A stretch of DNA of 64,000 bases, taken from the IMG/VR virus record IMGVR_UViG_3300031555_004779; one strand, given 5' to 3'. This document shows, one piece after another, positions 32,569 to 49,600 of this stretch (its first letter is position 1; each line of letters begins with the position of its first letter). A program made the translations under genes and the position numbers. The notes beneath the pieces are model-generated. The model had not been told where the DNA came from, searched no databases, and saw only the letters and a list, made by a program, of their open reading frames with translations. This DNA is from a virus. Taxonomy: Duplodnaviria > Heunggongvirae > Uroviricota > Caudoviricetes.

Positions 32569-32664
32569 TTTTATTTCAAAATAAGTATTTACAAATCCCA
32601 AAACCTATGATATACTTATATCGTTCCTAAGGGGAACGGAAATAAAAGAAAGAAGGTAAAACAC

Positions 32665-33285
32665 ATGGAAAACAAATATGTATGGAGAAACGAAGAACTC
32701 AACAACCAGCTCACCGCTATCGCTTATGCCAAGAATGAAAATGATATGGCGAAGGCTATTCGTGAATGCTTGAAGAACATCGCTATTGAATGGTGGAAAG
32801 ACCTTTCCGAAGAAACCAAGCAGGCCATCCGTTTGGTTGACTTCAATCATGCTGTTATCTGCTCTCTGATGTTCTTCAGCCCCGAAAGCGTTATGTGCGA
32901 CTATTATCCCATTCGCGCCGCTCTGGATGATATGGTGGAAGCTCATGCCGCTCTCATCACTGGTGAATACCCCTATGGCGGCGTGCCCATCATGCCCCAC
33001 GATGTAAACAATCGTAAGTATTTCTGGGGCACAAGCGAAAACGCCATTCAGGCTACCTATTATCTTAACAAGTGCAAGAAGCAGTTAACCGAAGAAGTGC
33101 AGAATGTCGCTCGCATGTATGGTATTGAAGATGCCAAGGCCATTGTTGAAACTGCTATCGAGCATTCTTCTGTAGTCAACAACCACAAGAAGAACAAGGC
33201 AAAGTATGTATCTGAACTCCGCAAGGAATATCTGCACGAAGTATTTGCTATGCTCAGGCAATATGATGCTTTGAGGGGTGAGTAA
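32665..33285 (+). CDS. early protein, hypothetical (206 aa)
   Basis: RBS AAGAAGGT. The hairpin GGTGAGTAATCACC follows. Confidence 0.5.
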   Translation: MENKYVWRNEELNNQLTAIAYAKNENDMAKAIRECLKNIAIEWWKDLSEETKQAIRLVDFNHAVICSLMFFSPESVMCDYYPIRAALDDMVEAHAALITGEYPYGGVPIMPHDVNNRKYFWGTSENAIQATYYLNKCKKQLTEEVQNVARMYGIEDAKAIVETAIEHSSVVNNHKKNKAKYVSELRKEYLHEVFAMLRQYDALRGE

Positions 33286-33303
33286 TCACCCTTCTTTTTT
33301 ATT

Positions 33304-33322
33304 CTATATGTTAAACATATAG
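33304..33322. promoter_or_regulatory. IPR19 palindrome (copy 23)
   Basis: CTATATGTTAAACATATAG. Confidence 0.6.
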
Positions 33323-33419
33323 TTTTATTTGAAAATTCTTATTGACTTTCCTATAATATGTGATATAATGAATATGTCCTTAAGGAAAGGACATAATAAA
33401 AAGAAAGAAGGTACTTCAC

Positions 33420-33863
33420 ATGGCTAACTACTTCTCCGAACGCAATGAACTGGAAAACAAGATTCGTGACCTCGCTATTGCTCTCGACAGTCTTCGCAGA
33501 ACCAAGGATGATGCTCGTCAGAACTATCTCGCTGAACTCGCCCACCTCATCAAATCTCGTCCCGGCCTGACCGCTTCGCAGTATGCTATGCTTATGAGCA
33601 ACGATGCTTGCGAACGTAACAGCATTCAGATGAGCATCAGCAACATGGGGTACATGGCAGAAGCCTGTGAAAAGAATCTCCGCTCCTATCCCTATTACGG
33701 TGATACTTCCCATGTGGTATGTTCCAATCCTTCCATGCCGTCTTTGAAGCGTAAGCAGACCACAGTCAAGCGCCGTTTCATTGAGGTTGACGAAAACAAT
33801 CAGCCTATCGGCACCCATGAAACCACTGAATACCGTACCGTTTACAGCATCAAGGAGGACTAA
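33420..33863 (+). CDS. early protein, hypothetical
   Basis: RBS AAGAAGGT. Confidence 0.5.
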   Translation: MANYFSERNELENKIRDLAIALDSLRRTKDDARQNYLAELAHLIKSRPGLTASQYAMLMSNDACERNSIQMSISNMGYMAEACEKNLRSYPYYGDTSHVVCSNPSMPSLKRKQTTVKRRFIEVDENNQPIGTHETTEYRTVYSIKED

Positions 33864-33867
33864 ACCA

Positions 33868-34128
33868 ATGAAGAAGATTTTCGCTCTTGTCCTCGCCCTG
33901 ATTCTCGTTTTCGCCGTTGCTTCTCCCGCCCTCGCCAACGTTGGTTGGTTTGACTTCAACTATGACTTCCAGTATGTCATCATCAATTTCGGCTCCCGTA
34001 CCATTGAAGGTACATGCGAAAAATGGTGGGATTATGAAGATAGCGACGTTGTACAGGTACAGATTGACGGCGTTATCTATCTGACCCATTATGAAAATGT
34101 TCTGTTGTGTAGCAAGAAACTGTGGTAA
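33868..34128 (+). CDS. small secreted protein with signal peptide
   Basis: RBS AAGGAGG. N-terminus MKKIFALVLALILVFAVASPALA. Confidence 0.45.
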   Translation: MKKIFALVLALILVFAVASPALANVGWFDFNYDFQYVIINFGSRTIEGTCEKWWDYEDSDVVQVQIDGVIYLTHYENVLLCSKKLW

Positions 34129-34154
34129 AACCACAGTTTCTTTTTTATGAGAAA

Positions 34155-34173
34155 CTATATGTTAAACATATAG
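34155..34173. promoter_or_regulatory. IPR19 palindrome (copy 24)
   Basis: CTATATGTTAAACATATAG. Confidence 0.6.
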
Positions 34174-34189
34174 AATTAAAAGAGTGGAA

Positions 34190-34603
34190 TTACTTCCACT
34201 CAATTTCATCGCAACGCATCTTATTAAAGTTGTGGTCTAACACAAGGTCAGCCATACCATGCAACATACAAGAAACAGTTTTCACTCCCTTTGGCACATA
34301 GAGAATAATTTCTTTTCTTTTTGCAGAAGCATAACCCACTTCAAATGCCGTGCCCGCGTCAGCATTGAAACCCCAATCAATAGCAATCACAAGGTCAGCG
34401 CGTTCAAGCATTTTAATATCATGATGACAAACTTTCGCGCCCCAATTCCAGTTGGGAAGATTATCGCCGTCAGGAACTTTATAATATCGGGGAATGAAGA
34501 TTTCCCAATCATCATATCTGCGCGCGATTTCATCAATGATTCTACTATATTCTTTTTCCTGTTCGGGAGTAAACCAAGGGCCAGCCAAATAAAGCAACTT
34601 CAT
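34190..34603 (-). CDS. nucleoside 2-deoxyribosyltransferase-like (DNPH1/Rcl-like) protein, in an inverted cassette
   Basis: Motifs LYLAGPWFTPEQ and GTAFEVGYA. The minus-strand promoter (TTGACA, 17 nt, TATACT) and RBS AAGGAAGG are read from the palindrome at 34668-34686. The start was set at MKLLYLAG. Confidence 0.5.
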   Translation of the reverse strand: MKLLYLAGPWFTPEQEKEYSRIIDEIARRYDDWEIFIPRYYKVPDGDNLPNWNWGAKVCHHDIKMLERADLVIAIDWGFNADAGTAFEVGYASAKRKEIILYVPKGVKTVSCMLHGMADLVLDHNFNKMRCDEIEWK

Positions 34604-34667
34604 GATATAGCACCTTCCTTTCGTGATATAGTATATCATGTTTAGTGTTGCTTGTCAACAAGAAAAA

Positions 34668-34686
34668 CTATATGTTAAACATATAG
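34668..34686. promoter_or_regulatory. IPR19 palindrome (copy 25), serving the minus-strand cassette
   Basis: CTATATGTTAAACATATAG. Confidence 0.6.
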
Positions 34687-34695
34687 AAACAAGCG

Positions 34696-34723
34696 TTGAC
34701 TTTTCTCCAAAAATGAGTATAAT
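34696..34723 (+). promoter_or_regulatory. promoter with no ORF before the next promoter at 34815-34843
   Basis: TTGACT, 16 nt, TATAAT, followed by a roughly 85-nt GGA-rich transcript. Confidence 0.4.
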
Positions 34724-34902
34724 AGATAATGTCAAGAGGCAAGAGGGTAGGGCGAAGGTTAGAGGGTAATCCGGAACCCACCAAAAAAATCCTCAAAAAA
34801 ATCTCAAAAAGCACTTGACAACCGCCACAAACTGTGGTACAATAAAATCACTCCAAAGGGAGTAAATAAGAAAGTCCTAACATGGACAGAAAGAGGTATC
34901 TT

Positions 34903-35412
34903 ATGGCTAACATGAAGGAAATCACCGCTACCGTTCTCGCTCAGTATCCCGATGCTACCGCTTGCCGCAATGGCTCCAATGGCAACTTCCTCGCCGTGAT
35001 GGGCGAAGTTGTTGATGGTGTTCAGACCTACTACGGCGTGAAGGTATGGAAGCTCGCCGCCAAGGCCACCAAGACCAACCCTGCCTTTGATGTGGAAGCC
35101 GCCCACGCGGAGTATGAAGCCTATGCCGCGAAGCAGGCCGAAAAGGCAAGCAAGCCCAAGGTTTCTAAGGAACCCGACCCCGAGAAGGTTGCCGCGAAGA
35201 AACGCCGTCAGGCCGGCCTGCTCGAGTACATGACCGAGAACGCAGGTGTGGAAGTTACTTCCAATGATGTGTTCACCGCCTTGAAGGATAGCGTGTACGA
35301 TGGTTGTCTTATCATGGCAGTCGGCTCCGACCTTCAGGCTCTTGCCAAGGTTGACGAAAAGTTGACCGTTCGCGTTGAGAAGGGCAAGAAGTACTGGACT
35401 TACAACGCCTGA
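34903..35412 (+). CDS. paralog family member A (170 aa), hypothetical
   Basis: RBS AAAGAGGT. The protein aligns along its length with the products of 37476-38006 and 38926-39438. All three end in a conserved C-terminus such as EKGKKYWTYNA. Confidence 0.5.
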   Translation: MANMKEITATVLAQYPDATACRNGSNGNFLAVMGEVVDGVQTYYGVKVWKLAAKATKTNPAFDVEAAHAEYEAYAAKQAEKASKPKVSKEPDPEKVAAKKRRQAGLLEYMTENAGVEVTSNDVFTALKDSVYDGCLIMAVGSDLQALAKVDEKLTVRVEKGKKYWTYNA

Positions 35413-35459
35413 TGTACAAGGTGGGAAGGAAACTTCCCACCTTTTCCATCCCAACAAAA

Positions 35460-35478
35460 CTATATGTTAAACATATAG
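35460..35478. promoter_or_regulatory. IPR19 palindrome (copy 26)
   Basis: CTATATGTTAAACATATAG. Confidence 0.6.
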
Positions 35479-35491
35479 AAAAACAGCCCGC

Positions 35492-35509
35492 TTGTTAAAA
35501 ACTTAACGA
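35492..35509. promoter_or_regulatory. second palindromic motif, copy 3 (TTGTTAAAAACTTAACGA)
   Basis: One arm mismatch. Confidence 0.45.
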
Positions 35510-35584
35510 AATTTGTTGTTGACATATCACGCAACCTATGATACAATGTATACATCCTAAGAAAAGAAAGGCGGTTACTATCCC

Positions 35585-36346
35585 ATGGAAACCATTCTCG
35601 TATTTGACACCGAAACCACAAGCATTGACAAACCTTTTGCCTATGATGTGGGCTATAAGATTCTGACCCGAAATTTTGAAACGCTCGAATCCAAGCACTT
35701 TGTGATTGAACAGATTTGGCATAATCTCCCTCTGTTTGAATCTACTTATTACAAAGATAAGCGCCCTTTGTACGTTCTCGCCATGCGTAAGCATGAAGCC
35801 ATCATGACCAAGTGGGGATACATGGTTGCTAAAATGCTCCGCGACATTAAGAAATATAATGTTGTAGCCGCTTATGCTTTCAATAGCACTTTCGATGACC
35901 GTGTTTTTCTTCACAACTGCGAATGGTTCAAAACTCGCAACCCCTTTGATACCATTCCCATCTATGATATTTGGGGCTATTCCTCCCAGTTTATCACGAA
36001 TACGCAAGCATACCGCGATTTTGCCGAAGCAAACCAATGCTTCACCGAATCCGGCAACATCAGCGGAAACGCCGAAAACCTTTACCGCTTCATGACCGCC
36101 GACCCCGATTTTGAAGAAGCGCACCAAGGCTTGCAAGACGTGGAAATTGAAGCCGAAATTTTACGCGAGTGCATCAAGCGTGGTGCAGAGTGGGACACCG
36201 AATATAAAGTGGTACAAAAGATTCCGCGTGAAATTGAACACCCTTACGCAATCAAGGTGAATGGAAAAGTTATCCATGAAGGCAAGTACACCAAAAAGTA
36301 TGTACGCAAGGATGTATATTCCTTCACGGAAGAAATGGTGGAGTAA
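35585..36346 (+). CDS. DEDDh-family 3'-5' exonuclease (DnaQ/RNase T-like)
   Basis: Exo I motif LVFDTETTS at the N-terminus. An H-x4-D Exo III motif (AHQGLQDVEIE) near residue 180. Confidence 0.55.
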   Translation: METILVFDTETTSIDKPFAYDVGYKILTRNFETLESKHFVIEQIWHNLPLFESTYYKDKRPLYVLAMRKHEAIMTKWGYMVAKMLRDIKKYNVVAAYAFNSTFDDRVFLHNCEWFKTRNPFDTIPIYDIWGYSSQFITNTQAYRDFAEANQCFTESGNISGNAENLYRFMTADPDFEEAHQGLQDVEIEAEILRECIKRGAEWDTEYKVVQKIPREIEHPYAIKVNGKVIHEGKYTKKYVRKDVYSFTEEMVE

Positions 36347-36373
36347 TCCACCATTTCTTCCATCACAACAAAA

Positions 36374-36392
36374 CTATATGTTAAACATATAG
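36374..36392. promoter_or_regulatory. IPR19 palindrome (copy 27)
   Basis: CTATATGTTAAACATATAG. Confidence 0.6.
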
Positions 36393-36462
36393 AAAATAAA
36401 TTTGACAAACATAAAAAATTCTGATATACTATATATGAAAATTAAGAAAGGAAGATGATTCT

Positions 36463-36696
36463 ATGACCGAACACGTCCACCCTTACATTGATGATGAACA
36501 CGATATCACCTGTCCTTACTGTGGCTCTCCGCTGTACAACTGGCGCGAAGAAACAGGGGATGTGGAATGGGAAGAACTACACAACGGACGTTTCACCTAT
36601 AAGGAAACGTGTGAACAGTGCAACCGTCGTGTAACGTATCATTTGAACTTCACCATAACTTGTGCCGTAGTTGAAGAAGAAAGGTTAGATAGGTAA
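36463..36696 (+). CDS. Zn-ribbon small protein (CPYCG..CEQCN)
   Basis: RBS AAAGGAAGATG. Confidence 0.45.
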   Translation: MTEHVHPYIDDEHDITCPYCGSPLYNWREETGDVEWEELHNGRFTYKETCEQCNRRVTYHLNFTITCAVVEEERLDR

Positions 36697-36881
36697 TGGT
36701 AACATATCTCGCCCTTGCTAATCTCGTAGTTAGCACATTCAGTACCGTATGGTTTAGCCGCGACACCGATATTTACACTGTAACAGATGTTATCATGACT
36801 ATGCTGTGCTGTGTACTTCCTATCATTCCCCTTTGCTATCTCTACCGTTGGTGTAACAAGTTTGTGAGAGGAGAAATCTAA
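36696..36881 (+). CDS. small membrane protein
   Basis: ATGA overlap with the upstream gene. Two hydrophobic helices. Confidence 0.4.
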   Translation: MVTYLALANLVVSTFSTVWFSRDTDIYTVTDVIMTMLCCVLPIIPLCYLYRWCNKFVRGEI

Positions 36882-36883
36882 CT

Positions 36884-37321
36884 ATGGAAGTTAAGACTAT
36901 CTATATTGCCAATGATGGCACGGAGTTTGAAGATAAGGAAGAATGCCTTACCTATGAATCTTCTTTGACATCTGAATGCGATTTTGTCCAACTGTATGAC
37001 AATGATGGCAAACTCATTGATTGGAATCCCGATGATTATGATGGTATGTGGGATCATCTCTATTACATCGTCATTGAACCGCACCGCGAAGAAGAAGCAG
37101 AAGAATGGTGGGCCAATTCCTTTGGCGTTATGCTTGGTGTTAATCCGTTCAGTGAAATGGATAACGACTGGAAAGCATGGAAACACCATTATCATGGTGA
37201 CGAACCGACCGTTCTTGCTTTTGACTTCGGAGGAAATGACAGTTGGATTATTTTCAATGAAGTCTATGACGAAGTAAAAGGCATTGTTCGCGGCCTTGAC
37301 CTTGTGGATGCTCTCGGTTGA
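36884..37321 (+). CDS. acidic early protein, hypothetical
   Basis: ORF track entry. A hairpin follows. Confidence 0.45.
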   Translation: MEVKTIYIANDGTEFEDKEECLTYESSLTSECDFVQLYDNDGKLIDWNPDDYDGMWDHLYYIVIEPHREEEAEEWWANSFGVMLGVNPFSEMDNDWKAWKHHYHGDEPTVLAFDFGGNDSWIIFNEVYDEVKGIVRGLDLVDALG

Positions 37322-37336
37322 GAGCATTCCAATAAA

Positions 37337-37355
37337 ACTATATGTTAAACATATA
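37337..37355. promoter_or_regulatory. IPR19 palindrome (copy 28)
   Basis: CTATATGTTAAACATATAG. Confidence 0.6.
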
Positions 37356-37368
37356 GAAATATCACCCG

Positions 37369-37386
37369 CTTGTTAAAAACTTAACA
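37369..37386. promoter_or_regulatory. second palindromic motif, copy 4 (TTGTTAAAAACTTAACAA)
   Basis: Identical to copy 2. Confidence 0.5.
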
Positions 37387-37475
37387 AAGAAAATACTTGA
37401 CCAATCACCAAAAGTGTGATACAATAAATACGTCCTCAAGAGAGGAACACTAAATAAGAAAGAGGTATCCCAATT

Positions 37476-38006
37476 ATGAAGAACGAACTTCGCGCCGAAG
37501 CCCTGTCCGCAGTCCTGCCCAAGGTAATGGAAATGTTCCCCGATGCCGTCAATGTCTGCGTTTCCAACAAGAACATGCTTGCCGTTGATACTGGCAAGGT
37601 TGATGACAATGGTAAACCCATCTACGCCACCATTGATATTACCATCAAGGACAACGAAGCCACCAAGACCCGCGAAGGCTTTGACCTGATGACCGCCGTC
37701 AACGCCTACAACGAAAAGGCTTCCAAGGCTACCGAGCGTAAGTCCAAGACCCCTTCCGCGCCCAAGAACACCGAAGCCGCCGAGCGCAAGAACAAGCGTA
37801 TGACCGCCCTGCGCGAGTGGTGGACGAATGAAGCCGTTTCCGGCGAGGGCTACACCAGCACCATGATCAAGACCGAGCTTGCCGATGTGTATAGCGAACT
37901 GACCATTATGCAGGTTGGCTCTGACCTCAAGACCCTGTCTGAAATCATTCCCACCGAGTGCGAGATGCGCGTGGTCGAGGGCAAGAAGCACTACTTCAAG
38001 GCGTAA
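37476..38006 (+). CDS. paralog family member B
   Basis: RBS AAGAGGT. Ends in VEGKKHYFKA. A classic terminator hairpin GCTCCCCGAAAGGGGAGC plus a T-run follows. Confidence 0.5.
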   Translation: MKNELRAEALSAVLPKVMEMFPDAVNVCVSNKNMLAVDTGKVDDNGKPIYATIDITIKDNEATKTREGFDLMTAVNAYNEKASKATERKSKTPSAPKNTEAAERKNKRMTALREWWTNEAVSGEGYTSTMIKTELADVYSELTIMQVGSDLKTLSEIIPTECEMRVVEGKKHYFKA

Positions 38007-38012
38007 GTCAGC

Positions 38013-38038
38013 GCTCCCCGAAAGGGGAGCATTTTTTG
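38013..38038 (+). terminator. rho-independent terminator
   Basis: GCTCCCC-GAAA-GGGGAGC followed by ATTTTTTG. Confidence 0.6.
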
Positions 38039-38047
38039 TTTGGAAAA

Positions 38048-38066
38048 CTATATGTTAAACATATAG
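38048..38066. promoter_or_regulatory. IPR19 palindrome (copy 29)
   Basis: CTATATGTTAAACATATAG. Confidence 0.6.
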
Positions 38067-38082
38067 AATAAAAAAGGAACGC

Positions 38083-38562
38083 TTAACGTTCCTTCGGTGG
38101 AGCATATTTATTGTATTTTTCTCTTTGCTCACCATATCCCACAGTACCAAGCATACTATAGTTATCGCGCAGATAGAAAATCATACCTTCTAAGATATCT
38201 TTCGTGCGCTCACGTTCATGACGAATTGCTTCTGCCTTGATTGCGTTATTGCCTAACTTCAAGATGCGGTCTGCCTGCTCAGTAACAGTTGCTTCAACGG
38301 CATTCTCTTCATATTTGCTAATGACTTCATCCATAGGATATTCATCAAAGCCAATATACCAAAAACCTTCTCTGCTCTTGTCGGCATTCTGCACATAGCT
38401 TTCATACTGAGAAAACTTCTTCATAGTCAAGCGTTCCCAACAACGAATTGCTTCTGCTCTGTCATCAGTAACAAACAAAGTTTTCCAGTAATACCAGCCA
38501 TGCTCAACGATTTCATAAATTGTTTTCTTAGAACAGAACTCCATAAACATCTTCTTATCCAT
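38083..38562 (-). CDS. hypothetical protein (159 aa) in an inverted cassette
   Basis: The minus-strand promoter (TTGACG, 17 nt, TATAAT) and RBS AAAGGGGTG are read from the palindrome at 38631-38649. Confidence 0.45.
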   Translation of the reverse strand: MDKKMFMEFCSKKTIYEIVEHGWYYWKTLFVTDDRAEAIRCWERLTMKKFSQYESYVQNADKSREGFWYIGFDEYPMDEVISKYEENAVEATVTEQADRILKLGNNAIKAEAIRHERERTKDILEGMIFYLRDNYSMLGTVGYGEQREKYNKYAPPKER

Positions 38563-38630
38563 GTGTTACACCCCTTTCTTGATTGCTTCTATATTATAAC
38601 ATTTGTTTTTTATTCCGTCAAGTACTAAAA

Positions 38631-38649
38631 CTATATGTTAAACATATAG
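38631..38649. promoter_or_regulatory. IPR19 palindrome (copy 30), serving the minus-strand cassette
   Basis: CTATATGTTAAACATATAG. Confidence 0.6.
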
Positions 38650-38744
38650 TTTCCCCTTTTCCGCCCGGATTTCCGGGCTTTTCTTTTACTCTCTCATCCC
38701 ACTGCGTACCGCACGATTCCCAAAATTTTCCAAAATATACAAAA

Positions 38745-38797
38745 AGCTGGAAAGCTGGAAAATTTTTCCAAAGCTGGAAATTTTATAGAAGCTGGAA
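38745..38797. repeat. four direct repeats of AGCTGGAA just upstream of a TTGACA-17-TATAAT promoter
   Basis: Copies at 38745, 38754, 38772 and 38790, at spacings of 9, 18 and 18 bp. Confidence 0.5.
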
Positions 38798-38925
38798 TCA
38801 TATAAAAATTTGACAAATTCTAAAATTTTTCGTATAATATACCCATAAAGAACGAAAGAGTTCTAGAAATAATTATGGAGAAGGAAAACTCCAAATACAG
38901 AAACCCTCGAAAAAGGAGAAAACTT

Positions 38926-39438
38926 ATGGATGTAATGACTCGTGATGCCCTACGTACTGCTGTAATTGACAAGCTACTAGCTGACTTCCCCAAGGCCCAG
39001 AAGGTTGCCGGTGGTGTTGCCTTCATGTCTGAGACCCTAGATGAGGAAACTGGCCTATATTTCCCTGTTGAGATTAAGGTAAGTGTAAAGAATACTCAGG
39101 CTACCGCTCGTTCTGAAGCCTATGACTTTGAAAAGGCTGTTGCTGATTTCGCCGCTAAGCCCGGTCGCCGTACTGTTGACCCTGCCAAGAAGGCTGAACG
39201 TGAAGCTGCTCATGCTGCCTCTGTTGCTAAGAAGAATGCTAATCTAAAGGTTCTACGCGACTGGATTGCTGGCCATGAGATGAACGAAATGACCGCTACC
39301 ATGGTTTATGAGGCTATTCCTGAACTACAGACTGGTACTCTAATGGCTGTTGGTACTCTACTAAAGGAACTAGTTGAAGACGGTACTGTTGTAGTAACTC
39401 TAAGCGAGAAGCGCAAGAAGCTATATACCAAGGCGTGA
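38926..39438 (+). CDS. paralog family member C. It is diverged and Leu is coded mainly by CTA.
   Basis: RBS AAGGAGAA. Ends in SEKRKKLYTKA. An in-frame upstream ATG at 38875 has a weaker RBS. Confidence 0.45.
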   Translation: MDVMTRDALRTAVIDKLLADFPKAQKVAGGVAFMSETLDEETGLYFPVEIKVSVKNTQATARSEAYDFEKAVADFAAKPGRRTVDPAKKAEREAAHAASVAKKNANLKVLRDWIAGHEMNEMTATMVYEAIPELQTGTLMAVGTLLKELVEDGTVVVTLSEKRKKLYTKA

Positions 39439-39466: not shown

Positions 39467-39490
39467 GAGGAGCGTAAGCTCCTCTTTTTT
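39467..39490 (+). terminator. rho-independent terminator
   Basis: GAGGAGC-GTAA-GCTCCTC followed by TTTTTT. Confidence 0.6.
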
Positions 39491-39499: not shown

Positions 39500-39517
39500 T
39501 TGTTAAAATTTTAACAA
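39500..39517. promoter_or_regulatory. second palindromic motif, copy 5 (TTGTTAAAATTTTAACAA, perfect)
   Basis: 18-bp perfect palindrome. Confidence 0.5.
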
Positions 39518-39754
39518 AGTGTGTATGATAAAAAGAAGCGCTTAAAATGTATAACTCGTCAGGCTTGATTTGTTAAATTTTATATGACATAAATTTGACT
39601 TATTAGAAAAATTATGCTACAATATAAATAAAGCTGGATACTTATAGTTTGAGCGAAACGCTCTTATTGATATTATGGGAGGTGTTCGCAATTCCGAACA
39701 AACTTTTTGAATAGCTGGAAAACTACCGATTAACCAACCAACTAACTGTTACCA

Positions 39755-39784
39755 AATTGGTAGAATTGGTAGGAATTGGTAGAA
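39755..39784. repeat. three tandem copies of AATTGGTAG(A/G) at an exact 10-bp period
   Basis: Copies at 39755, 39764 and 39774. Related copies occur at 40480 (inverted) and 40625. Confidence 0.5.
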
Positions 39785-39872
39785 CTACATATTATGAATG
39801 GAAGAATGGCAAGCCGCCAGCAAAGTTAATTACTTACCAAAAAGTAGAACAATTTCTACAAGGAGAATAGAA

Positions 39873-40043
39873 ATGACTTATTTCAATTGTTATAGTGCCA
39901 AGTTAGCAGGATTTCTACGTAAAAAGGGCTTCAAAATTGTAGGCACAAAAGTAAACCTAAAGAAACCGCAATATGACATATTCCTATTTGAAGAAACAGA
40001 AGAATTAAAGAAAGCTGTAGATGAATATTGCCACAGCCTATAA
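39873..40043 (+). CDS. small basic protein (56 aa), possible DNA-binding protein
   Basis: RBS AAGGAGAATAG. An in-frame upstream ATG at 39798 lacks an RBS. Confidence 0.4.
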   Translation: MTYFNCYSAKLAGFLRKKGFKIVGTKVNLKKPQYDIFLFEETEELKKAVDEYCHSL

Positions 40044-40056
40044 TGGAGGAGTTCCA

Positions 40057-40473
40057 ATGATTAACAGTTTCAAAGATAATAAAGTGCGCGATAGTGCTTT
40101 AGTTTATAACGGCACTTGGGAGCAAATAAAAAAATTATATGCCACCAATCCGCAGCAAGCGGGAGAGCTGGCAATTTCTGCCATTGAAATGGCATTGACA
40201 GGCGATATTAGTTCTGATGACTTTCTTGTTGGAATCGCTTTGGAAAACATGAGAGTGGTAGCTAAAAAGAATAAGGATAAATGGGATAAAGAATGCGACA
40301 GAAAACGCACGAATAAAATCGCCGCGCTTGCTCTTGATAAAATTGCGGAGTTATATTTACAAAAAATACCACAAACAAAAATTGGTCAAGAATTAAATAT
40401 TCCACAACAAACAGTTAGTTATCGCTTAAATATTATACGCAAAGAATTTCCTGAATTACTAAAAGAGGAATAG
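40057..40473 (+). CDS. ArpU/Alt-like late transcription regulator (sigma region-4-like C-terminal HTH). Its terminal codon is TAG and the frame stays open beyond it.
   Basis: RBS GGAGGAG. C-terminal helix-turn-helix IGQELNIPQQTVSYRLNIIRKEF. About 140 aa, located at the early/late boundary ahead of a repeat-rich AT region. Confidence 0.4.
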   Translation: MINSFKDNKVRDSALVYNGTWEQIKKLYATNPQQAGELAISAIEMALTGDISSDDFLVGIALENMRVVAKKNKDKWDKECDRKRTNKIAALALDKIAELYLQKIPQTKIGQELNIPQQTVSYRLNIIRKEFPELLKEE

Positions 40474-40554
40474 GACCTTACCAATTCTACCAACTTTACT
40501 AATATTGGTAATTTTAGTACCAATGGTACCAGTAGTACCAACAATCCAACGTAT

Positions 40555-40614
40555 GATACTGATACTGTAACTGATACTGATACTGATACTGTAACTGATA
40601 CTGTAACTGATACT
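40555..40614. repeat. hexanucleotide tandem array (GATACT/GTAACT) of 10 units
   Basis: In frame with the open extension behind the ArpU-like gene, where it would encode (DT/VT)n. Confidence 0.6.
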
Positions 40615-40865
40615 TCTTTACCCGCTACGCGGGAAATTGGTAGAACCTACCAAAAAATGTCAGTGACAGAAATTGACAAAATGTTGGTAGAAAATGATAC
40701 GGAAGAAATTGTATATAAGGACGGCGCGCTAACGAATTACACAACTGGTGAGGTTATCTATCTTGACGCAGATAGCCAAAAGGAATATGATTCTTATCTT
40801 TATGAATGGAGCTAATTTCATTTTCATTTCTTGAAAGCGTTTCAAAAATCCAATTTCATTTCCAT

Positions 40866-40896
40866 ATAACCCGAAACCCTCCCCTACGCGGGAGGG
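40866..40896 (+). terminator. rho-independent terminator
   Basis: ACCCTCCC-CTACGC-GGGAGGGT followed by TGTTTGTTTT. Confidence 0.55.
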
Positions 40897-41099
40897 TTGT
40901 TTGTTTTCCCGAAACTATGCCGGCGGGCAGATGGTTCTCTTCCACCATTATAATGTTATCATAAATTTGTCAAATTGTCAATGTTTCTTTCAGTTAAAAA
41001 TTTGCGTGGGATGAAGATACCAAAGGTTAGATGTATTGAATTTTGACAGTGTAAAAATGATGATTGATTATATGTTTTTCCATATGATTTTTATAGTAT

Positions 41100-41225
41100 A
41101 TCAAAAGTTGGAGAAAACTTAAAAAAATTTTTAAAAAATTTTTAAAAAAGAAAATTTTATTTAAAAAAAATTTAATTTAAATAAAAAATAAAATAATTAA
41201 ATTTCCACGGGAATTTTTTGGATAT
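41100..41225. other. phased A-tract/T-tract block (AAAAAATTTTTAAAAAATTTTTAAAAAA...), about 90% A+T, likely intrinsically bent. Candidate DNA-unwinding element, origin or packaging region.
   Basis: Alternating A5-7 and T5 runs at roughly 10-11-bp intervals. A C/A-rich strand-biased tract follows at 41320-41410. Confidence 0.35.
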
Positions 41226-41523
41226 AATGGGAAAATTTGATTGAACGACACCTCGGTTTTTCTACTTATACGATGAAGATGAAAACGGATTTTGTAGGGG
41301 AAAAATGAAGGATGGTCACTAAAACACCACACCACCCACACCACACACTACCATTCACCTCGGCGACACAACTTTACCCCACCAAAACCCCAAAATCAAC
41401 GCATCATCTCCTTTCGTTTTGCTTATATTATTATTTATTTCCTCTTTAAAGCAGAAAAGAAGTAGGCGTATAAACCTTCCTTCTAACCGCCCTAAACAAA
41501 CTAAAAAAATACACTGAGGAAGA

Positions 41524-42108: not shown

Positions 42109-42561
42109 ATGATAGATGTTGCAGCATATGCGCTATTAAAACGCGGCATTACTACCGCAGGTTCCACCACTCCAGGAGTAGGCATCGTTGATGCCAAAAT
42201 TGAAAATGGTCACCTAATCCTAATCATGAGTGATGGAAGCACTATTGACGCTGGCCTATTACCTACTGGCGCCGGCATAGATGACTCTGTGGTTTCTACT
42301 GAAACTACATGGTCAAGTGCGAAAATAGAAGAATACCACACTCAACATGTTGAAATCCGTGCTGCTGAAATTGCGCAAGAAGTCGCCGAACGCGCTTTAA
42401 GTGAATTTGTACCCGAACTAATTAGTGGTGGTACCGCAGAAAGCACAATAGAGTACATTGAAGGTGGTTCTGCCTCAGATGTAGAGCCAGATGTACTTTA
42501 CGGTATGGATGCCGATGAAGAGCCCGTAGGCGTAAAATTTGATTTTTCCGAGGAGGCGTAA
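42109..42561 (+). CDS. hypothetical protein (150 aa, Gly/Thr-rich N-terminus, acidic C-terminus)
   Basis: ORF track entry. Confidence 0.4.
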   Translation: MIDVAAYALLKRGITTAGSTTPGVGIVDAKIENGHLILIMSDGSTIDAGLLPTGAGIDDSVVSTETTWSSAKIEEYHTQHVEIRAAEIAQEVAERALSEFVPELISGGTAESTIEYIEGGSASDVEPDVLYGMDADEEPVGVKFDFSEEA

Positions 42562-42564
42562 CAT

Positions 42565-42792
42565 ATGGCACGTTTAATTGAACTAGAAAACCAAAAACAA
42601 TGCGCCTCTTGGGGCTATCAAGGTGAAAGTGGCGCAACAATTTTAATCGCTTCTATAAGCGAATTTGCAGCCCAGTATCCAACTGGAAAACCCAATGTAA
42701 TTTTCCAACGTCATGATGGTCATCCTTATATGCACAAATTTATTCTTTCAGGGGAAAATCTCCTTATAGAATTAAATTCTACTGATACTTAG
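42565..42792 (+). CDS. hypothetical small protein
   Basis: ORF track entry. Confidence 0.35.
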   Translation: MARLIELENQKQCASWGYQGESGATILIASISEFAAQYPTGKPNVIFQRHDGHPYMHKFILSGENLLIELNSTDT

Positions 42793-42846
42793 CAATGGGG
42801 AAAGTGCGAAGTTCAAATTAGCTGGCTCGTCAGCGGTAACAAAGTA

Positions 42847-43263
42847 ATGAAGAAGAAAATTTATTCTTCCTACATTTTGCCTGGCGATCTTGAAGGTGAC
42901 CTTCCACTTACAGACGAAAGTATTTTAGCTTTGGATAATTTGGAAGCTTATGTAGAAGAAGCAAAATTGCTATTAAATGAAGCAAAACAATACGCCGCTG
43001 AACTGGTATTTGTTGAAGCATTACCCGAAGTTGGTGATAACACTAAACTTTATATTGACAAAGCAACTTCTTCTATGTATTATTGGAGTGGCGATGCCTT
43101 TATGCTTCTCAATCCTTCTTATGAATGCGATTGTGACGATAAAAAGCCTAGTCCGCCACCACCACCTCCACGTCCACCACACATTCCTTGTCCGCCAATA
43201 ACAGGCGATGGACAAGAGATTCTTTATGGTGGCAATGCTTTCTTTCCACAAGCAGAAGACTAA
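42847..43263 (+). CDS. protein with a proline-rich segment (PSPPPPPRPPHIPCPP)
   Basis: ORF track entry. Confidence 0.4.
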   Translation: MKKKIYSSYILPGDLEGDLPLTDESILALDNLEAYVEEAKLLLNEAKQYAAELVFVEALPEVGDNTKLYIDKATSSMYYWSGDAFMLLNPSYECDCDDKKPSPPPPPPRPPHIPCPPITGDGQEILYGGNAFFPQAED

Positions 43264-43307
43264 TAAATAAATCCCCACAACTAGATTAACGCAAGCAGGT
43301 GAATAAA

Positions 43308-44756
43308 ATGGCGACAGTTTTAAGCACTAAAATCATTCTTCGTAATGATACTGCGGCTAGTTGGTTAGAACACAATCCAATTCTATCTGCCGGCGAATTT
43401 GGTATTGAATGGGATACTGGTTTATTTAAAATCGGTAACGGTACAACCACCTATAACAAATTACCATATGCCGGCGCTCCTAGTGCAAGCGGTTCTGCTA
43501 TTCTAGATGCTGATGGATATACCTTAAGCGCGAATCTAGAACGCAAACTTGGCTTAAACAAATGGGGCATAGAATACCACAAATGGGTTGGCGACCACTA
43601 TGAGCTTGTTCCCGTTGATGCGAACAATCCATGGAAAATCAACTTACAACCAAAAGTCGCGCAAAACCCAACCACTGGTACCTTAGAGCTTGCTTGGTTT
43701 GAACCTTCCCCAATTTCTGCGGAAGACATTTCTGGCGCAGTTTCCGATTTACAAGAAACTGTTAATACTCTAAGTACTACTGTTGGTACAAAGGAAGATG
43801 CCGCAGGAACTGATAGTGTTTTTGGCGCAATAGCAACGCTAGACCAAAAACATAACGAACTTGCCGCGATTTCACTTCCTCTCACCGGCGGCCAAATGAC
43901 AGGTGAACTTCTACTTGCAGACGGTTCTCCTGCAGTTTCTGAGAAAACTGTAGATGATAAGATTACCTATGCTGTCGTAAACATGGGCACACTAAAACGC
44001 AAAGTAGTTACTGTTCTTCCTGATGTGGCTGATGCTGATGAGAACACAATTTATATGATAAAGAAGGGAACTTCTTTATTAAGCAATAGTTACGATGAAT
44101 ATTTCTTAATTGAAGGTACATTTGAATTAATTGGCGATACGTCTGCCGATTTGGAAGATTATATCAAAAAGCCATTAACATTCACCGAAGGAAATATTGC
44201 TTTATTTAGTAATGATGGTTCAATTAAAGATGCCGGCATTACTGCTAAAGATATATCAGAACATATTGCTGACAATGTTCTTCACATTACTGCCGAAGAA
44301 CGTGCTCGTTGGAACTCTGGAACTGGTTCTGGCGAAGCTCCAATTTATATTTTCGGTTCTGGCTTACAAGCTGACAATACTGGCGCAGTAACTTTAAAAG
44401 TTGCTGAAGAAAGTAATGGTATTACCGTTAGTGATGACGGTATTGCTCTTGCTCTTGCAACCAATGAATCCGCTGGCGCGATGTCCGCTGCACAATATTC
44501 TAAAATTTCTAATATGAAAGATATTTAGGGTGTTGTTCTTGGTGATATTGTTGAAGCAGCTTTCGACCCAAAGAATCGTGTACATATTCCAATGGCAAAT
44601 TCTGTAAGTCCTGGTGTTGTAGTTTCCTCTAGTGCTACCAACTCTATTGCAGTTGATATGCTTTCTGGTACCATGACCGTAAATACAATTGAAACAAGTA
44701 AACTTGTAGTTCCTGAAGGACAAGAGCTAATCTTAAATGGTGGCTCTGCTTCTTAA
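43308..44756 (+). CDS. tail fibre protein 1. The conserved N-terminal anchor domain is shared with five other genes. One in-frame TAG at 44526.
   Basis: RBS AGGTG. N-terminus IILRNDTAASW..P.L..GE.G.E.DTG..KIGNGTT.YN.LPY. The frame continues past the TAG to TAA at 44754. Confidence 0.55.
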
Positions 44757-44783
44757 TTTTATTAAAAAGTGAGGTAAAAATTT

Positions 44784-46535
44784 ATGGCTGATAATCATAC
44801 CCTAAATACTCGCATTAAACTTAAATATGACAGTTATGAAAACTGGATTGCAAAGGACCCTGTCCTACTAGCTGGCGAAGTTGCCATTGCTACCGTTGCT
44901 TCTAATGATGCTGAAGGCAAGCCTGGCTTTCAAAACCTACCCAACATTGTATTCAAGGTTGGTGACGGAAGCAGCAAATACAGCGCCCTAAAGTTCGTAT
45001 CTGCTCTAGCTGCTGACGTACACAGCTGGGCTAAGGCTGCTGATAAGCCTGTTTACACCGCCGCTGAAATTGATGGAATCAAGGCTTATATTGATGGCGT
45101 AATTGGCGATCACAGTGAAATTCAAGATACTGATACCAAGTATATCATGGAAACTGTAGATGGCAACACCTATAAGTACGGTCTATATTCTACCAACAAG
45201 GCTGGCGAAAACAAGACTCTAGTATATACTCTAGACCTAAGTGGTGTAGACGGACGTCTAGATGATCTAGAAGCCGCTGTTGGTGAATCTGGTAAAGTTT
45301 CTCAACAGATTGCTGCTGCTATTGAAGCTATCGCAGTTGCCGAAACCAACCTTGGCACCACTGAAATGTATTCTGGTTACAAGCAGGTTGGCGGTATTGT
45401 AACTCTAAACAAGCGTACTCTAGGTATTGCTAACGTAGATGGCCTACAGACCGCTCTAGACGCTAAGCAGGACAACTTAGTCTTCGAGACTGCTTATGAT
45501 GCTGCTACCAATAAGGTTGCCACTATGGCTAACGTTACTGGTGCTATCGACGCTCTAGATAAGGCCGATGCCGCTGTTGAAAAACAGTTTGTAACCGCCG
45601 TATCTGAAGAAAATGGTATCATCACTGTAAGTCGTGCTGCTCTAAAGGCTTCTGATATTCCTAATATCACTCAGAGCCAGGTAGACGGCCTAGAAGATGC
45701 CTTAGATGCTAAGCAGGATAACCTAGTAATTGCCGACAATTACAATGCCGAAAGCAATAAGGTTGCTACCGAAGCTACCGTAACTAAGGCTGTTGCTGAC
45801 TTAAATGGTGCTATGCACTTTGAAGGCGTTGCGCCTAAGGATCCCACTACCTTCACCAACAAAGAAAATGATGTTTATAGTGGTGGCGACGTCTTACTAT
45901 TCGGTTATGACGAATATGTATATGATGGAAATACTTGGCACAAGCTAGGCAACGAATCCATTTATAAGCTAAAGAGCGAAGCTGCTACCGAGCACGAAGC
46001 TATGCAAGGTGAAATTGATGCTCTAGAAGCTAATAAGCAGGATAACCTTGGCTTTGAAGGTACCTACAACAAGGACACCAACAAGGTTGTAACCAAGTCT
46101 GCAATGACTGATGCCATCACCTCTGCTGTTGACGCCCTAGATAAGGCTGATACTGCCGTTGAGCATCAGTTCGTAACTAGCGTAAGCGAAGAAAATGGTG
46201 TTATTACTGTTCTACGCGCTCAGCCTGCTATCGCTGACGTAAATGGTCTAACCGAACGTCTAAGCGGTATTGACAGCGAGATTGCTAAGAAGCAAGATAT
46301 TGTTGGTTTTGCCGATGATTACAATAAGGACACCAATAAGGCTGCGACCGTAGCAACCGTAACCAATGCTATCAATGCTCTAGACAAAGCTGATGCTGCT
46401 GTTGAAGGACAGTTCGTTACTGCTGTACCTCAGGAAAATGGTATTGTAACCGTTTCTCGTGCTGCTGTAACCACTGACCACATCCAGCAAGGCACCAAGC
46501 CTTTCATTCTTGATTGTGGCACTGCCACTCTTTAA
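44784..46535 (+). CDS. tail fibre protein 2 (coiled-coil and repeat rich). CTA is the main Leu codon.
   Basis: N-terminus IKLKYDSYENW..P.L.AGE......KVGDGSSKY. A hairpin terminator (46547-46578) follows. Confidence 0.55.
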   Translation: MADNHTLNTRIKLKYDSYENWIAKDPVLLAGEVAIATVASNDAEGKPGFQNLPNIVFKVGDGSSKYSALKFVSALAADVHSWAKAADKPVYTAAEIDGIKAYIDGVIGDHSEIQDTDTKYIMETVDGNTYKYGLYSTNKAGENKTLVYTLDLSGVDGRLDDLEAAVGESGKVSQQIAAAIEAIAVAETNLGTTEMYSGYKQVGGIVTLNKRTLGIANVDGLQTALDAKQDNLVFETAYDAATNKVATMANVTGAIDALDKADAAVEKQFVTAVSEENGIITVSRAALKASDIPNITQSQVDGLEDALDAKQDNLVIADNYNAESNKVATEATVTKAVADLNGAMHFEGVAPKDPTTFTNKENDVYSGGDVLLFGYDEYVYDGNTWHKLGNESIYKLKSEAATEHEAMQGEIDALEANKQDNLGFEGTYNKDTNKVVTKSAMTDAITSAVDALDKADTAVEHQFVTSVSEENGVITVLRAQPAIADVNGLTERLSGIDSEIAKKQDIVGFADDYNKDTNKAATVATVTNAINALDKADAAVEGQFVTAVPQENGIVTVSRAAVTTDHIQQGTKPFILDCGTATL

Positions 46536-46609
46536 TTAAATAATATGCCGACCGACTGATGTCGGTCGGCATTTTTTTCATATATAATTCTATTAAAAGG
46601 AGAATGCAC

Positions 46610-49600
46610 ATGAGTAGAAAATTAATCACCAAGATTATTCTACGCAACGATGTAACTCAAAATTGGTTACTCGTTGCCGATACCATGGTACTCCTACGCG
46701 GTGAAATTGGTTTAGAATATACTGATACTGGCGTAAAAATGAAAATAGGTGACGGCATCTCTACATGGGGACAGCTTCCTTATTTTGTTTCTGGCGCTGG
46801 CACAGCCGAACTACCTGAGAATTTTACTTGGGCTGATTTACTAGGTGTAGCCGCTGAAGGAGAAACAACCTCCACTACAAATATTGGTTTAGTAAAACCC
46901 GCTTTAGCAGATAAAGTTGATGTTAATATTTTAAATGCTAATGCTGAAATTATTGATACTAATATTTTTGACCTAACTGAAAAAATTGGTTCTTTAACTA
47001 CACTTGTTGAAGAAAATGTCAATCAAATTCGTGCTACTTTAGCTGATTATGAAGGACGCATTGCGGCTCTAGAAAACAATAGTCCTGAAATTGATTCTGC
47101 TGAATTAGAAGCATTAAAAACTTCTGTTGCAGAATTAACTGAACGTGTTGTAATTCTTGAAAATCGCCAACCTACTGAAGGTGGTACTGTTGATTTCACT
47201 GAAATCAATAATGCGATTGCAGCCTTAGACAAGCGCATTGTAGCTATAGAAGAATCTTTTGTTAAAAAAGAAGAACTAACTTCTGTAAAAGATGAATTTA
47301 ATAAAACTCTTGAAAATTATACTACCAGAGAAGATTTAAGTTCTGTAAAAGAAATTGTTTACGGAAATACCGAGTGTATTACTGAAGTTGAAAATTTCGC
47401 TAAAAAGTTAGAAGAACAAGCCGGCCGTGTTAATGTATAGCTAAATGAAATGACAGAAAAAGACCTTTCTCTTGAACGTCGTATTACCACTCTTGAAGAA
47501 AATGGCGTTCCAGGTGATGGCGGTTCTGCCGAAGTAAGTCCTGAAACTCTTGCTCAAATTGAAGCTAATACTGCTAATATTGCTACTCTAACTGAAACTG
47601 TTGGTGGATTTGACGAACGTATTACTACTGCAGAAGAAAATGCCGCGACCGCTTTAACCTTTGATGAGCGCATTACCGCTGCTGAAACTACTGTCGCTGG
47701 TTATGATACTAAAGTTAATGCTGCCGTAGAAGCTACTCAAGCTATTACTGGTATGCAAACTACCATTAATGAAACAACCGCTCGTATGGAAGCAGTTGAA
47801 ACAGAAATGGAAGCTACCAACACTAATGTAGAAGCTATGGGTACTCGTGTTGAAGCAGCAGCTTCTGTCGTAGAAGAATTTGATGGCCGCGTAACTACCA
47901 CCGAAGCTCGTTTAGAAGAATTAATTGAAGCTTCTTCTAATGGCGAACTTGACGGTGTAGCCGAAGTAGTTGATGCTCGCGTAGCAACTGATGGTACCAC
48001 CTATGAAAACTTAGGTTCTCACGTTCGTGCTTTAGGTGATGAAATCGCTTATGTAAAGAACAATACCGCTGATTTAGTTGGTGGAAAACTTGTTGATGGT
48101 CTTTCTTATGAAGGATATATGCTACAATTAACTGCCGGCGGTAATCCTGTTGGTAACGCTGTAGAAATCAAGGGTGGTTCTGGTACTGGTACTGGTGGAG
48201 CAGGCACTTATACTGCCACTTTAACTAACCTACTAGATAGCCGTATGATTTCTGTTCCTAAAGGCGAATCTGTTGTACTAAAGTACAAGTATACTTCTGT
48301 TGATAACGAAGGGACTGACGATGGCGATGGCATCGGTGCAATTTCTGTTGAAAACGTTATCAAAGCTCGCTTCCCTGTAGCCCAAGGTGAAGTTGAAACA
48401 GATATTACTAATTACTTAGTAAATGGTACCAACACTGTTAAATTAACTGTTGAAAACTCTGAAGGTACGGTAAAGACTATTATTTATACCGTTACTGTTA
48501 TTGCTTTGACTTTAACCACTCCCTTTGCTGAAATGAATACTTATTCTGGCGATGTGGGATTCCAATATACAATTACTGGTAATGGTGCTAAAGTAATTCA
48601 TTTCATTTTAGATGACGATTATGAAGTTGGCACTGAAACTATCACTGCTGTAAATGCTACTCGTACTTTCACTATTCCAAAGCAAACTGATGGTGCTCAT
48701 ATTTTCAGTGTTTATGCCGAAACTGAAGCTGAAGGTACTATCATTCGTTCTGACGAATTACGTCTCGGTATGATGTGGACCTCTAGTGAAATGACTGAAA
48801 AAGCAGTTCTAGTTAATTATAACGGCGGTGAAAAGCAATAGGGTGAAATTATTCAGATTCCTTATTTAATATATGATCCATTCTCTCAAAATGCTGATGT
48901 ATTCTTTAGCATTTATAATGAAGATGGTTCTTTATATTATGAATCTGAGTCTAGTATTGTAGACCAGACTGCTAAGATTTGGTCAGTACAAGATTTCCCT
49001 GAAGGAAACACTGTTTTCCGTGTAACTGCTGGTAATAAAGAAGATACCGCGGAAACTAATGTATATGAAGAAGTTGTTATTAAGATTAATCCTTCTTCTT
49101 TCACTAATACTATAATTGATGATAACCTCCTACTAGACTTCAACGCTCGCAATAAGACTAATTATGTTGAAAACCCGGGCCACTGGGAATACAATGGTAT
49201 TGTTGCTGAATTTGACAACTTCAACTGGGCAGAAGCCGATGGTTGGGTAACCGACAAAGATGGCGCAAGCGTACTACGCTTCCTACCTGGCGGCAAGATG
49301 GTTATTCCTTTCAAGCCTTTTGAAAGTGATATTCGTAACTCCGGTTACACCATTGAAGCAGAGTTTGCAACCAATAATGTTCGTGACTATGATAGCGTTG
49401 TAATTGACACTTACAGTGGCGGTCGTGGTTTGATTATTCGTTCTCAGAACGCAGCTCTAAACTCTGAACAGTCTGGTGTAGGTGTACAGTTCAAAGAAGA
49501 CGCACGTATTCGTTTGACTTTCGTAGTCGAACAGAACACTCTAAATCGTTTTGTATATGTTTATATTGATGGTATCCTTTGCGGCATCACTCAATATTCA

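Follow-up and report, generated by a model that had tools for sequence, protein, structure and literature searches.

Gut phages that read TAG as glutamine (Gln; genetic code 15) keep their early genes in the standard code and recode the late ones, and the gating of late-gene translation by this code switch has been published as a general model (Borges et al., bioRxiv 10.1101/2021.08.26.457843). Recoding of TAG to Gln has been validated by metaproteomics (PMC9523058), and the Phassvirus group of recoded gut phages has been described (PMC10607447). In those parts of the Borges et al. preprint that deal with terminal extensions, the stops concerned are treated as mis-called starts or true stops, and no two-isoform regulator is described there (10.1101/2021.08.26.457843). 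The present work is concerned with one in-frame codon, TAG 40471-40473, in a putative regulator gene of a tailed phage (Caudoviricetes; IMG/VR record IMGVR_UViG_3300031555_004779), of which a stretch of 64,000 nucleotides (nt), called the window below, was analysed. Like the code-15 gut phages, the window has TAG-free early genes and late structural genes in which TAG makes up 15.8% of Gln codons; the difference is that genes for a suppressor tRNA, a release factor or an aminoacyl-tRNA synthetase were not seen in its 64 kb.

C-terminally extended isoforms are also produced by programmed stop read-through, as in the coat/A1 proteins of phage Q-beta (UGA) and gag-pol of murine leukaemia virus (UAG). 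The locus under study resembles these systems in that a single open reading frame (ORF) has its stop codon where two domains meet and would give short and long products with a common N-terminal part. It differs from them in the source of decoding: in those systems mRNA context and host tRNAs fix read-through at a low level, while here decoding would come from a phage-wide reassignment. Late activators of the ArpU/RinA/LtrC class in siphophages of Firmicutes have their genes where the early block ends, immediately before those of the terminase. The cassette considered here also stands at the early/late border, and the window protein is small and has a sigma-4-like helix-turn-helix (HTH), but no ArpU model matches this protein and its N-terminal domain is DUF6291-like. 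One more parallel is the O gene of phage lambda, which contains ori-lambda with its iterons, A+T-rich stretch and palindrome in the inter-domain linker. Common to both loci are a DNA-binding N-terminal domain, linker DNA with a motif array, an A+T-rich tandem array, GC palindromes and a small C-terminal part; in difference from lambda, the window has no nearby replication genes, no homology to O and only weak evidence from GC skew, and in most relatives the element lies outside the ORF.

The junction TAG, the genetic code and the regulator family

The reading that we favour, with a probability of about 0.6, is that this TAG is a plain Gln codon of a late-class gene, the product of which has 252 amino acids (aa) in the recoded state, a 138-aa fragment being an unavoidable by-product. 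An earlier, sequence-only reading of the window had instead described an early-type, ArpU-like regulator gene that ends in a conspicuous TAG and is extended when the code switches. Its description of the frame is largely correct. The ORF starts with ATG 40057, preceded by a GGAGG ribosome-binding site, the gene 40057-40473 terminates in TAG, and the in-frame region beyond contains 113 sense codons up to TAA 40813-40815. The extension is indeed unlikely to have arisen by chance, as composition-preserving shuffles were open over an equal length in 5e-5 of trials, and its 92 non-array codons taken separately were stop-free in 1e-3 of trials. It is A+T-rich, though at 63% and not about 70%, and it ends with a separate tail ORF, though one of 52 and not 53 aa. 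The hexamer array does consist of ten in-frame units, GATACT seven times and GTAACT three times (Tandem Repeats Finder: period 6, 10.2 copies). The TAG at the junction, located at the boundary of domain and linker, is the sole TAG within the gene. Public gene calls for relatives treat this codon in different ways: the products P0001 and P0002 have Gln there, P0003 and P0004 stop at the TAG and give a 138- or 150-aa protein, and P0121 is the 52-aa tail alone.

Reading of TAG as Gln by the phage is supported by the fusion of ORFs and by the recoded late genes; the suppressor tRNA that was expected with it is lacking in the 64-kb window. When TAG is read through, six ORFs that abut in one frame become a single ORF of 2324 codons, 46559-53533 (+), with seven in-frame TAGs, and many genes on both strands become longer in the same manner. 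In the gene of a DegT-type aminotransferase, 59402-60487 (+), a TAG stands inside the motif 'RLDEI-TAG-AGLL', at a position which we take to be a conserved Gln of the DegT-type family, and in three relatives (L002, L005, L017) TAG encodes Gln-23, an almost invariant residue of the regulator family itself. Gln codons of the late genes are distributed as CAA 169, CAG 87 and TAG 48 (TAG share 15.8%), and those of the early genes (+ strand, 20-39.4 kb) as CAA 24, CAG 69 and TAG 0; expressed per codon, TAG occurs 0 times in 3245 early and 48 times in 9285 late codons, that is, early genes compatible with the standard code are combined with recoded late genes. Gln decoding of TAG is thus shown for the phage and for the regulator family.

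The regulator gene itself has CAA 9, CAG 1 and TAG 1, a late-type usage when compared with the early 24/69/0, which does not support the idea of an early-type gene with a conspicuous TAG. One TAG in 11 Gln codons is near the late-gene rate of 15.8%, which places the gene in the late class. The related statement that early genes stop with TAA or TGA proved correct for 18 of the 19 genes checked, the exception being 34259-34645, which stops with TAG.

The search with the read-through product returned 187 homologues, and the DNA of approximately 100 loci was fetched. Two of the 187 span the whole 252 aa and have Gln at the TAG position. Outside the window clade 69 distinct genes were counted, 58 of them with the gene end inside the contig. 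In 53 of these 58 complete relatives a single ORF runs more than 25 codons beyond the sequence FPELL (median 63 codons), and the C-terminal residue is aromatic or Met in 50 of the 58, usually within F-x-F. As a rule, the extension of the relatives is built of a low-complexity linker and a short tail, and this family architecture is shown by the comparison. Conservation of the extension, which the earlier reading had made a test of its proposal, was therefore found for the linker-plus-tail architecture (53/58), but not for the tail of the window, which is without homologues outside the clade.

TAG is present in 41 of the 69 relatives, and in 28 of the 69 it lies inside the DNA-binding N-terminal domain, which makes a short isoform impossible in those 28. 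Its share of Gln codons is 17.6% in the N-terminal domain vs 15.3% in the extension. None of 34 Gln codons directly following PELL is TAG, and the junction TAG is absent from all 69 more distant relatives, which have a sense codon there or, in two cases, TAA or TGA. Since most members of the family carry an extension and TAGs are found all over the gene in recoded relatives, the TAG of the window is most simply read as Gln. A C-terminal extension is thus normal for this regulator family, the gene usually belongs to the recoded ones, and the junction TAG is no part of the family design. No close relatives were found among 50,697 INPHARED phage records (blastn in distant mode with 39500-41300; tblastn with the N-terminal domain).

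In agreement with the earlier reading, the close relatives L001, L094, L016 and L101 retain the TAG together with the open frame, and the hexamer array varies in length between isolates, being four units shorter in L001 than in the window; L016 and L101 are 86% and 87% identical to it, respectively. The nearest out-groups, L099 and L100, are recoded phages with TAGs in the N-terminal domain and a sense codon at the junction. Their genes continue with 9-nt motif repeats, a GATACT array in frame as (DT)n, GC hairpins, the residues ...FKF and a stop. The first part of the window linker is homologous to their in-frame sequences 'DFTNDTNNTNN' (L099) and 'DFTKNTKNTKN' (L100), so that the view of the extension as a (DT/VT)n linker, homologous to the translated (DT)n linkers of these two phages, stood up; this linker homology is shown.

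The name ArpU-like has to be limited. The NCBIfam scan at E <= 1 did not contain the ArpU model (TIGR01637) and returned only weak sigma-70/extracytoplasmic function (ECF) models plus unrelated ones, and Pfam and PHROGs were also without an ArpU match. DUF6291 (Pfam PF19808) matched residues 14-87 with 24.9 bits and E = 2.4e-5, below the gathering score of 27.2 bits, and many homologues with 45-57% identity have a precomputed PF19808 match. Weak Pfam matches to sigma-70 region 4 and HTH models cover residues 96-128, the scores being 15.4 bits for Sigma70_r4 (cut-off 24.1) and 16.9 bits for TIGR02937 (cut-off 42.9). Foldseek searches of the PDB and BFVD gave as neighbours solely generic HTH, sigma-4/ECF and DUF6291 proteins, those in BFVD being named DUF6291 proteins; the matches to ECF sigma factors had E = 0.2-0.9 and template modelling scores below 0.3. 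The AlphaFold2 model used was that of the relative P0001, which has 252 aa and shares 97% identity with the window read-through product. Its residues 1-140 are helical with a predicted local distance difference test score (pLDDT) of about 90, the linker 141-193 is disordered (below 50), and the tail 197-252 has a beta-alpha-beta-beta-beta-alpha fold with pLDDT 77-89. In relatives, a cassette of a small ribbon-helix-helix or HTH gene, a DUF5659 gene and the regulator gene lies at the end of the early block; from the regulator gene, the distance downstream to the gene of the small terminase is 1.3 kb in L097, and that to the gene of the large terminase is about 2.5 kb in L018. Consequently, the proposed ArpU-like regulator of late transcription keeps its analogous gene position and loses its family membership: the gene occupies the classical place of late activators, and 'ArpU-like' is a fair name in this positional sense only.

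The tail apparently has a history of its own. The mosaic relative L098 contains the same 52-codon ORF free-standing; it is preceded by an unrelated gene and by a hairpin that, with its T-run, resembles a terminator (identified by eye), and an in-frame TGA stands ten codons before the tail ATG. The tail is about 95% identical between the window and L098, and the stretch 40633-41311 as a whole, which is mostly intergenic, 76%; the tail ORF of L098 with the downstream terminator and promoter region is 92% identical to L001. Homology between the window and L098 begins at 40633, exactly the 3' edge of the hairpin 40621-40633. The 52-codon tail is thus of mosaic origin: it is a mobile small-ORF module, newly found here, that was joined in frame to the regulator in the window lineage.

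The following scheme may be proposed for the favoured reading. In the presence of an active amber suppressor, Gln would be inserted at TAG 40471, giving a 252-aa protein that would comprise a DUF6291-like helical domain with HTH (1-138), about 55 residues of disordered linker and an alpha/beta tail of similar size (about 55). The linker would be ancestral, and the last 52 codons would have been joined to it in frame by recombination just past the conserved hairpin. The (DT/VT)n array would not have evolved as a linker and would be the copy, in this lineage, of a DNA- or RNA-level element. Ribosomes that meet the TAG without suppressor would automatically release a 138-aa DNA-binding fragment, any use of which is putative. 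We infer that the 252-aa product is the main functional form.

A conserved element behind the DNA-binding domain

In nearly all relatives the DNA 3' of the N-terminal domain contains, in this order, a cluster of 6-mers, a hexamer array and one or more hairpins; examples are the window at 40474-40633, L052:2900-3420, L029:3029-3125 and L067:2930-3480. The cluster is dense, lies mostly on one strand and is lineage-specific. TACAAA is found in most loci, with 15-31 copies per 800 nt, TACCAA serves as the cluster word in seven loci including the window, GTACAA/CTTGTA was found in all six of the six loci with a recognition helix ..QQT[VI]SNR instead of ..SYR, and other words belong to single lineages. 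In the window, 13 of 81 copies of TTGGTA fall within 39750-40690 (Poisson p = 8e-11). The co-variation of helix and motif (Fisher p = 8e-5, uncorrected for phylogeny) suggests that the regulator protein binds the motif cluster.

The hexamer arrays of relatives consist of 4-9 units of GATAAT, GTTAAT and similar words. A long hairpin follows 9-28 nt past the array in most loci, usually with a second, GC-rich hairpin next to it. When sequences were folded one by one, two hairpins after the array were obtained in 31/31 loci, with z-scores from -2.6 to -7.9 and differing stem sequences, and RNAalifold on a MAFFT alignment gave only 4 pairs, all with compensatory changes, stem lengths being different. 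No Rfam family was found for the element in the window or in 20 related loci.

The position of the element relative to the coding sequence is variable. The array lies 93-118 nt past the stop codon in 18 loci and about 260-440 nt past it in 11 loci, and it is inside the ORF in the window, L005, L009, L017, L019 and L097, and also in L099 and L100. This conserved element, translated in some relatives but not in others, is newly found and is a more unusual result than the TAG itself. Possible roles are those of an array of autoregulatory or late-promoter sites, a signal acting at the transcript level, or an origin-like structure of the lambda O/ori type. Cumulative GC skew reaches a shallow local minimum in the region 40-42 kb, which coincides with the border of early and late genes; there are no replication genes near this minimum.

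Weighing the alternatives

A number of observations weigh against reading the TAG as plain Gln. No suppressor tRNA with a CUA anticodon was found in the 64-kb window by ARAGORN and Rfam, which gave only Met, Leu-UAA and Lys-UUU. All five members of the window clade (the window, L001, L094, L016, L101) have TAG at the same codon, the three codons before it vary (KEE, KGE, KDS, NKT), the frame is open wherever sequence is available, and their N-terminal domains contain no TAG. The TAG of the clade could be kept as a stop, although the statistics are weak, with approximately three independent lineages and a probability of about 0.15-0.18 that 10 N-domain Gln codons would all be free of TAG. Two distant relatives, L017 (TAA at +3) and L018 (TGA at +2), have true stops at the junction point, from which a protein consisting of the N-terminal domain only appears to be viable; the frame of L017, as read by eye, is one base off the long-form relatives in an A-run, and an assembly error is possible. 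The earlier reading had named stops or frameshifts in the extension of related phages, or a TAA in place of the TAG, as what would speak against it; true stops at the junction were encountered in these two relatives, and inside the clade the TAG was kept and the frame was open in all available sequence. As to the tail, no homologues were detected outside the clade (a search with the 52 aa gave one close relative only), the substitutions between the window and L098 (5 non-synonymous and 4 synonymous by hand count) are not clearly codon-like, and the ORF has no Shine-Dalgarno (SD) sequence of its own, so its protein status is only indirectly supported.

Several of these facts also speak for a code-dependent isoform switch. 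According to this proposal, a 138-aa form would be made before or at partial suppression and a 252-aa form after it, the two acting differently, for example as competitor and activator. The TAG stands exactly at the domain boundary, is the only one in the gene and is invariant in the five clade members in spite of the varying codons before it and the TAG-free N-terminal domains. Short forms are natural in L017 and L018 and long forms usual elsewhere, which makes both plausible as proteins; there is no backup stop for 113 codons, as compared with TAG 39868, which has TGA nearby, and TAG 34643, followed by TAA after 11 codons; and the operon promoter resembles the host sigma-70 type, so early transcription is possible. 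On the other hand, TAG is evenly spread in the 41 recoded relatives, standing in the N-terminal domain in 28 of them, L099 and L100 included; the leading gene of the operon apparently depends on read-through of its codon 8, which along with the late-type codon usage suggests translation after the switch; and conservation of a single codon in about three lineages is weak. Taken together, these data make the switch rather unlikely in our opinion. A softer form of the same idea, which we likewise hold to be doubtful, is that the TAG of the clade works as a tunable stop, the suppressor level setting the ratio of the 138-aa to the 252-aa product and the cis element being translated only in the recoded state.

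It may also be supposed that the TAG is the true end of a 138-aa regulator, followed by a non-coding cis element and a separate small gene or conserved stretch that is in phase incidentally. The motif cluster, array and hairpins do lie past the stop codon in about 29 relatives; the two hairpins with different stems in all 31 loci indicate a DNA function independent of translation; repeat units of 6 and 9 nt would hold a frame open without selection; and the tail ORF of L098 stands alone with a TGA upstream, just as L017 and L018 have real stops at the same point. However, a TAG without backup would be read through in a phage where it makes up 15.8% of late Gln codons, and a harmful product should select for TAA or TGA. 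The 92 non-array codons are stop-free (p = 1e-3), a single frame of the three is open through the array and it is the one that is in phase on both sides, L099 and L100 have translated linkers homologous to that of the window, and AlphaFold2 folds the tail confidently. With this balance, a true stop seems to us quite improbable, and we return to the plain Gln codon as the preferred reading.

The operon and other features of the window

The coordinates of the features of the locus are collected in Table 1.

Table 1. Features of the regulator operon in the window.
Feature	Position	Strand	Remarks
Sigma-70-type promoter, TTGACT, 17 nt, TG-n-TACAAT	39595..39623	+	10/12 matches, extended -10; conserved in L001
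Small XRE-type HTH gene	39691..39876	+	Inferred ATT start 7 nt after SD sequence GGAGGTG; TAG codon 8
DUF5659 gene	39873..40043	+	Pfam PF18903, E = 1.2e-9; stop TAA
Regulator N-terminal part, 138 aa	40057..40470	+	DUF6291-like helical domain and sigma-70-region-4/LuxR-type HTH; ends FPELL, then KEE
In-frame TAG, domain/linker junction	40471..40473	+	Kept in L001, L094, L016, L101
First part of linker, TACCAA/TTGGTA repeats, 9-nt period	40474..40554	+	Translates as DLTNSTNFTNIGNFSTNGTSSTNNPTY
Hexamer array, 10 GATACT/GTAACT units, (DT/VT)n	40555..40614	+	Tandem Repeats Finder; in frame also in L099, L100
GC hairpin CCCGC-TAC-GCGGG	40621..40633	+	Local counterpart of post-array family hairpins; L100 equivalent GGTGC-TAC-GCACC
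52-codon tail ORF (MSVTEIDKM...YEWS)	40657..40815	+	In frame with regulator; without own SD sequence; TAA 40813-40815
Intrinsic operon terminator	40875..40908	+	9-bp stem (6 G-C), T-run; conserved in L001, L094, L098

A terminator at 39467-39484 closes the transcription unit upstream of the 39595 promoter. The XRE-type HTH gene appears to have an in-frame TAG at 39712-39714 and ends with TAG 39868-39870, followed by AAA TGA; this backup TGA overlaps the ATG of the next gene, an arrangement conserved in L001. Sub-threshold Pfam alignments to HTH_19 and HTH_3 start at residues 8-10, at or just past the TAG, and the match to phrog_8 covers residues 4-56 of the product. Between TAG 39712 and the HTH domain there is no ATG, GTG or TTG start, and the only good SD sequence (GGAGGTG) precedes the TAG, so translation of this first gene of the operon seems to require read-through at codon 8. 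The DUF5659 gene is directly 5' of the regulator gene in L001, L016, L094 and L097 as well. No terminator-like site was found on the + strand between the TAG and 40875, from which it follows that the extension and the regulator share one mRNA. The operon terminator and the internal hairpin have the 10-mer CTACGCGGGA in common.

Two suppositions about the tail region were dropped. The tail was considered as a family domain, but BLASTP gave no significant match to the longer tails of P0075 and P0046, and the profile-profile probability was 1.7%. The perfect palindrome TTGGTAG-AAC-CTACCAA at 40637-40653, just 5' of the tail ATG, was considered as a conserved operator or RNA hairpin and is disrupted in L001, L094 and L098. 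Farther downstream, at 41110-41205 and 41043-41071, a conserved TTGACA promoter-like site is followed by about 95 nt of almost pure A+T, which contain 11- and 16-nt repeats and precede the next operon, and TTGTCAA occurs twice at 40968-40990; the tract, the TTGACA site and the TTGTCAA repeats are all conserved in L001 and L098. In L098 (1-560), some 150 nt of the downstream promoter region are also present twice.

Early and late modules differ in composition. Gln preference is reversed between 20000-39438, where CAG prevails, and 42500-58500, where CAA does, and G+C is about 44% in early genes vs about 40% in late genes. The trinucleotide TAG is depleted in all frames on the coding strand of the early block (5.5 per kb vs 12.5 per kb on the opposite strand). 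An exception in this block is the gene 34259-34678 (+), with TAG at 34643-34645 and TAA 11 codons on, which corresponds by position (unaligned) to a nucleoside deoxyribosyltransferase-like gene call of L001. The early block also contains a tRNA cluster, 30421-30870 (+), of Met-CAU, Leu-UAA and Lys-UUU, with a promoter-like TTGACA...TACAAT in the 142 nt that separate the first tRNA from the second. A suppressor tRNA was found in none of 20 related loci, and release factor and aminoacyl-tRNA synthetase genes were not seen in the 64-kb window.

According to PHROGs, the minus strand at 5.5-19.5 kb encodes a sigma-like protein, terminase, portal and structural proteins, and the plus-strand genes from 42.5 kb include one for a tail-fibre-like protein. 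The portal shares only 25-30% identity with its counterparts in large Firmicutes siphophages and in Phass-1 (25% with Phass-1). A gene for a 440-aa protein, 18171-19493 (-), heads the packaging module and has three in-frame TAGs; its product matches the phage sigma-factor phrog_5767 (E = 1e-20) and has a zinc-finger/HNH-like C-terminal part. The fused ORF 46559-53533 presumably encodes a giant tail or fibre protein, and its counterpart in L001 is a gene call of at least 1413 aa; its division into six separate TAG-terminated genes was rejected in view of the common frame, the lack of SD sequences and one 456-nt gap without a start codon. The tail-fibre-like ORF 56949-58478 has two consecutive in-frame TAGs at 57885-57890 (+). 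Auxiliary metabolic genes are represented by the DegT/EryC1-type aminotransferase gene 59402-60487 (+), with four in-frame TAGs, and by a candidate at 61352-61999 (+), which, read by eye, resembles a fragment of FolD-type methylene-tetrahydrofolate dehydrogenase.

If the TAG is a plain Gln codon, the regulator gene is one more recoded gene of a code-15 phage and shows the need for the correct translation table in annotation. Should the switch prove true, this would be the first case in which a change of the code alters the form of a transcription regulator and does not just block late proteins. What may matter more than the TAG is that this large gut-phage regulator family, absent from the INPHARED records searched, has a conserved 3' element; in those relatives where it is translated, protein-coding DNA overlaps a cis element.

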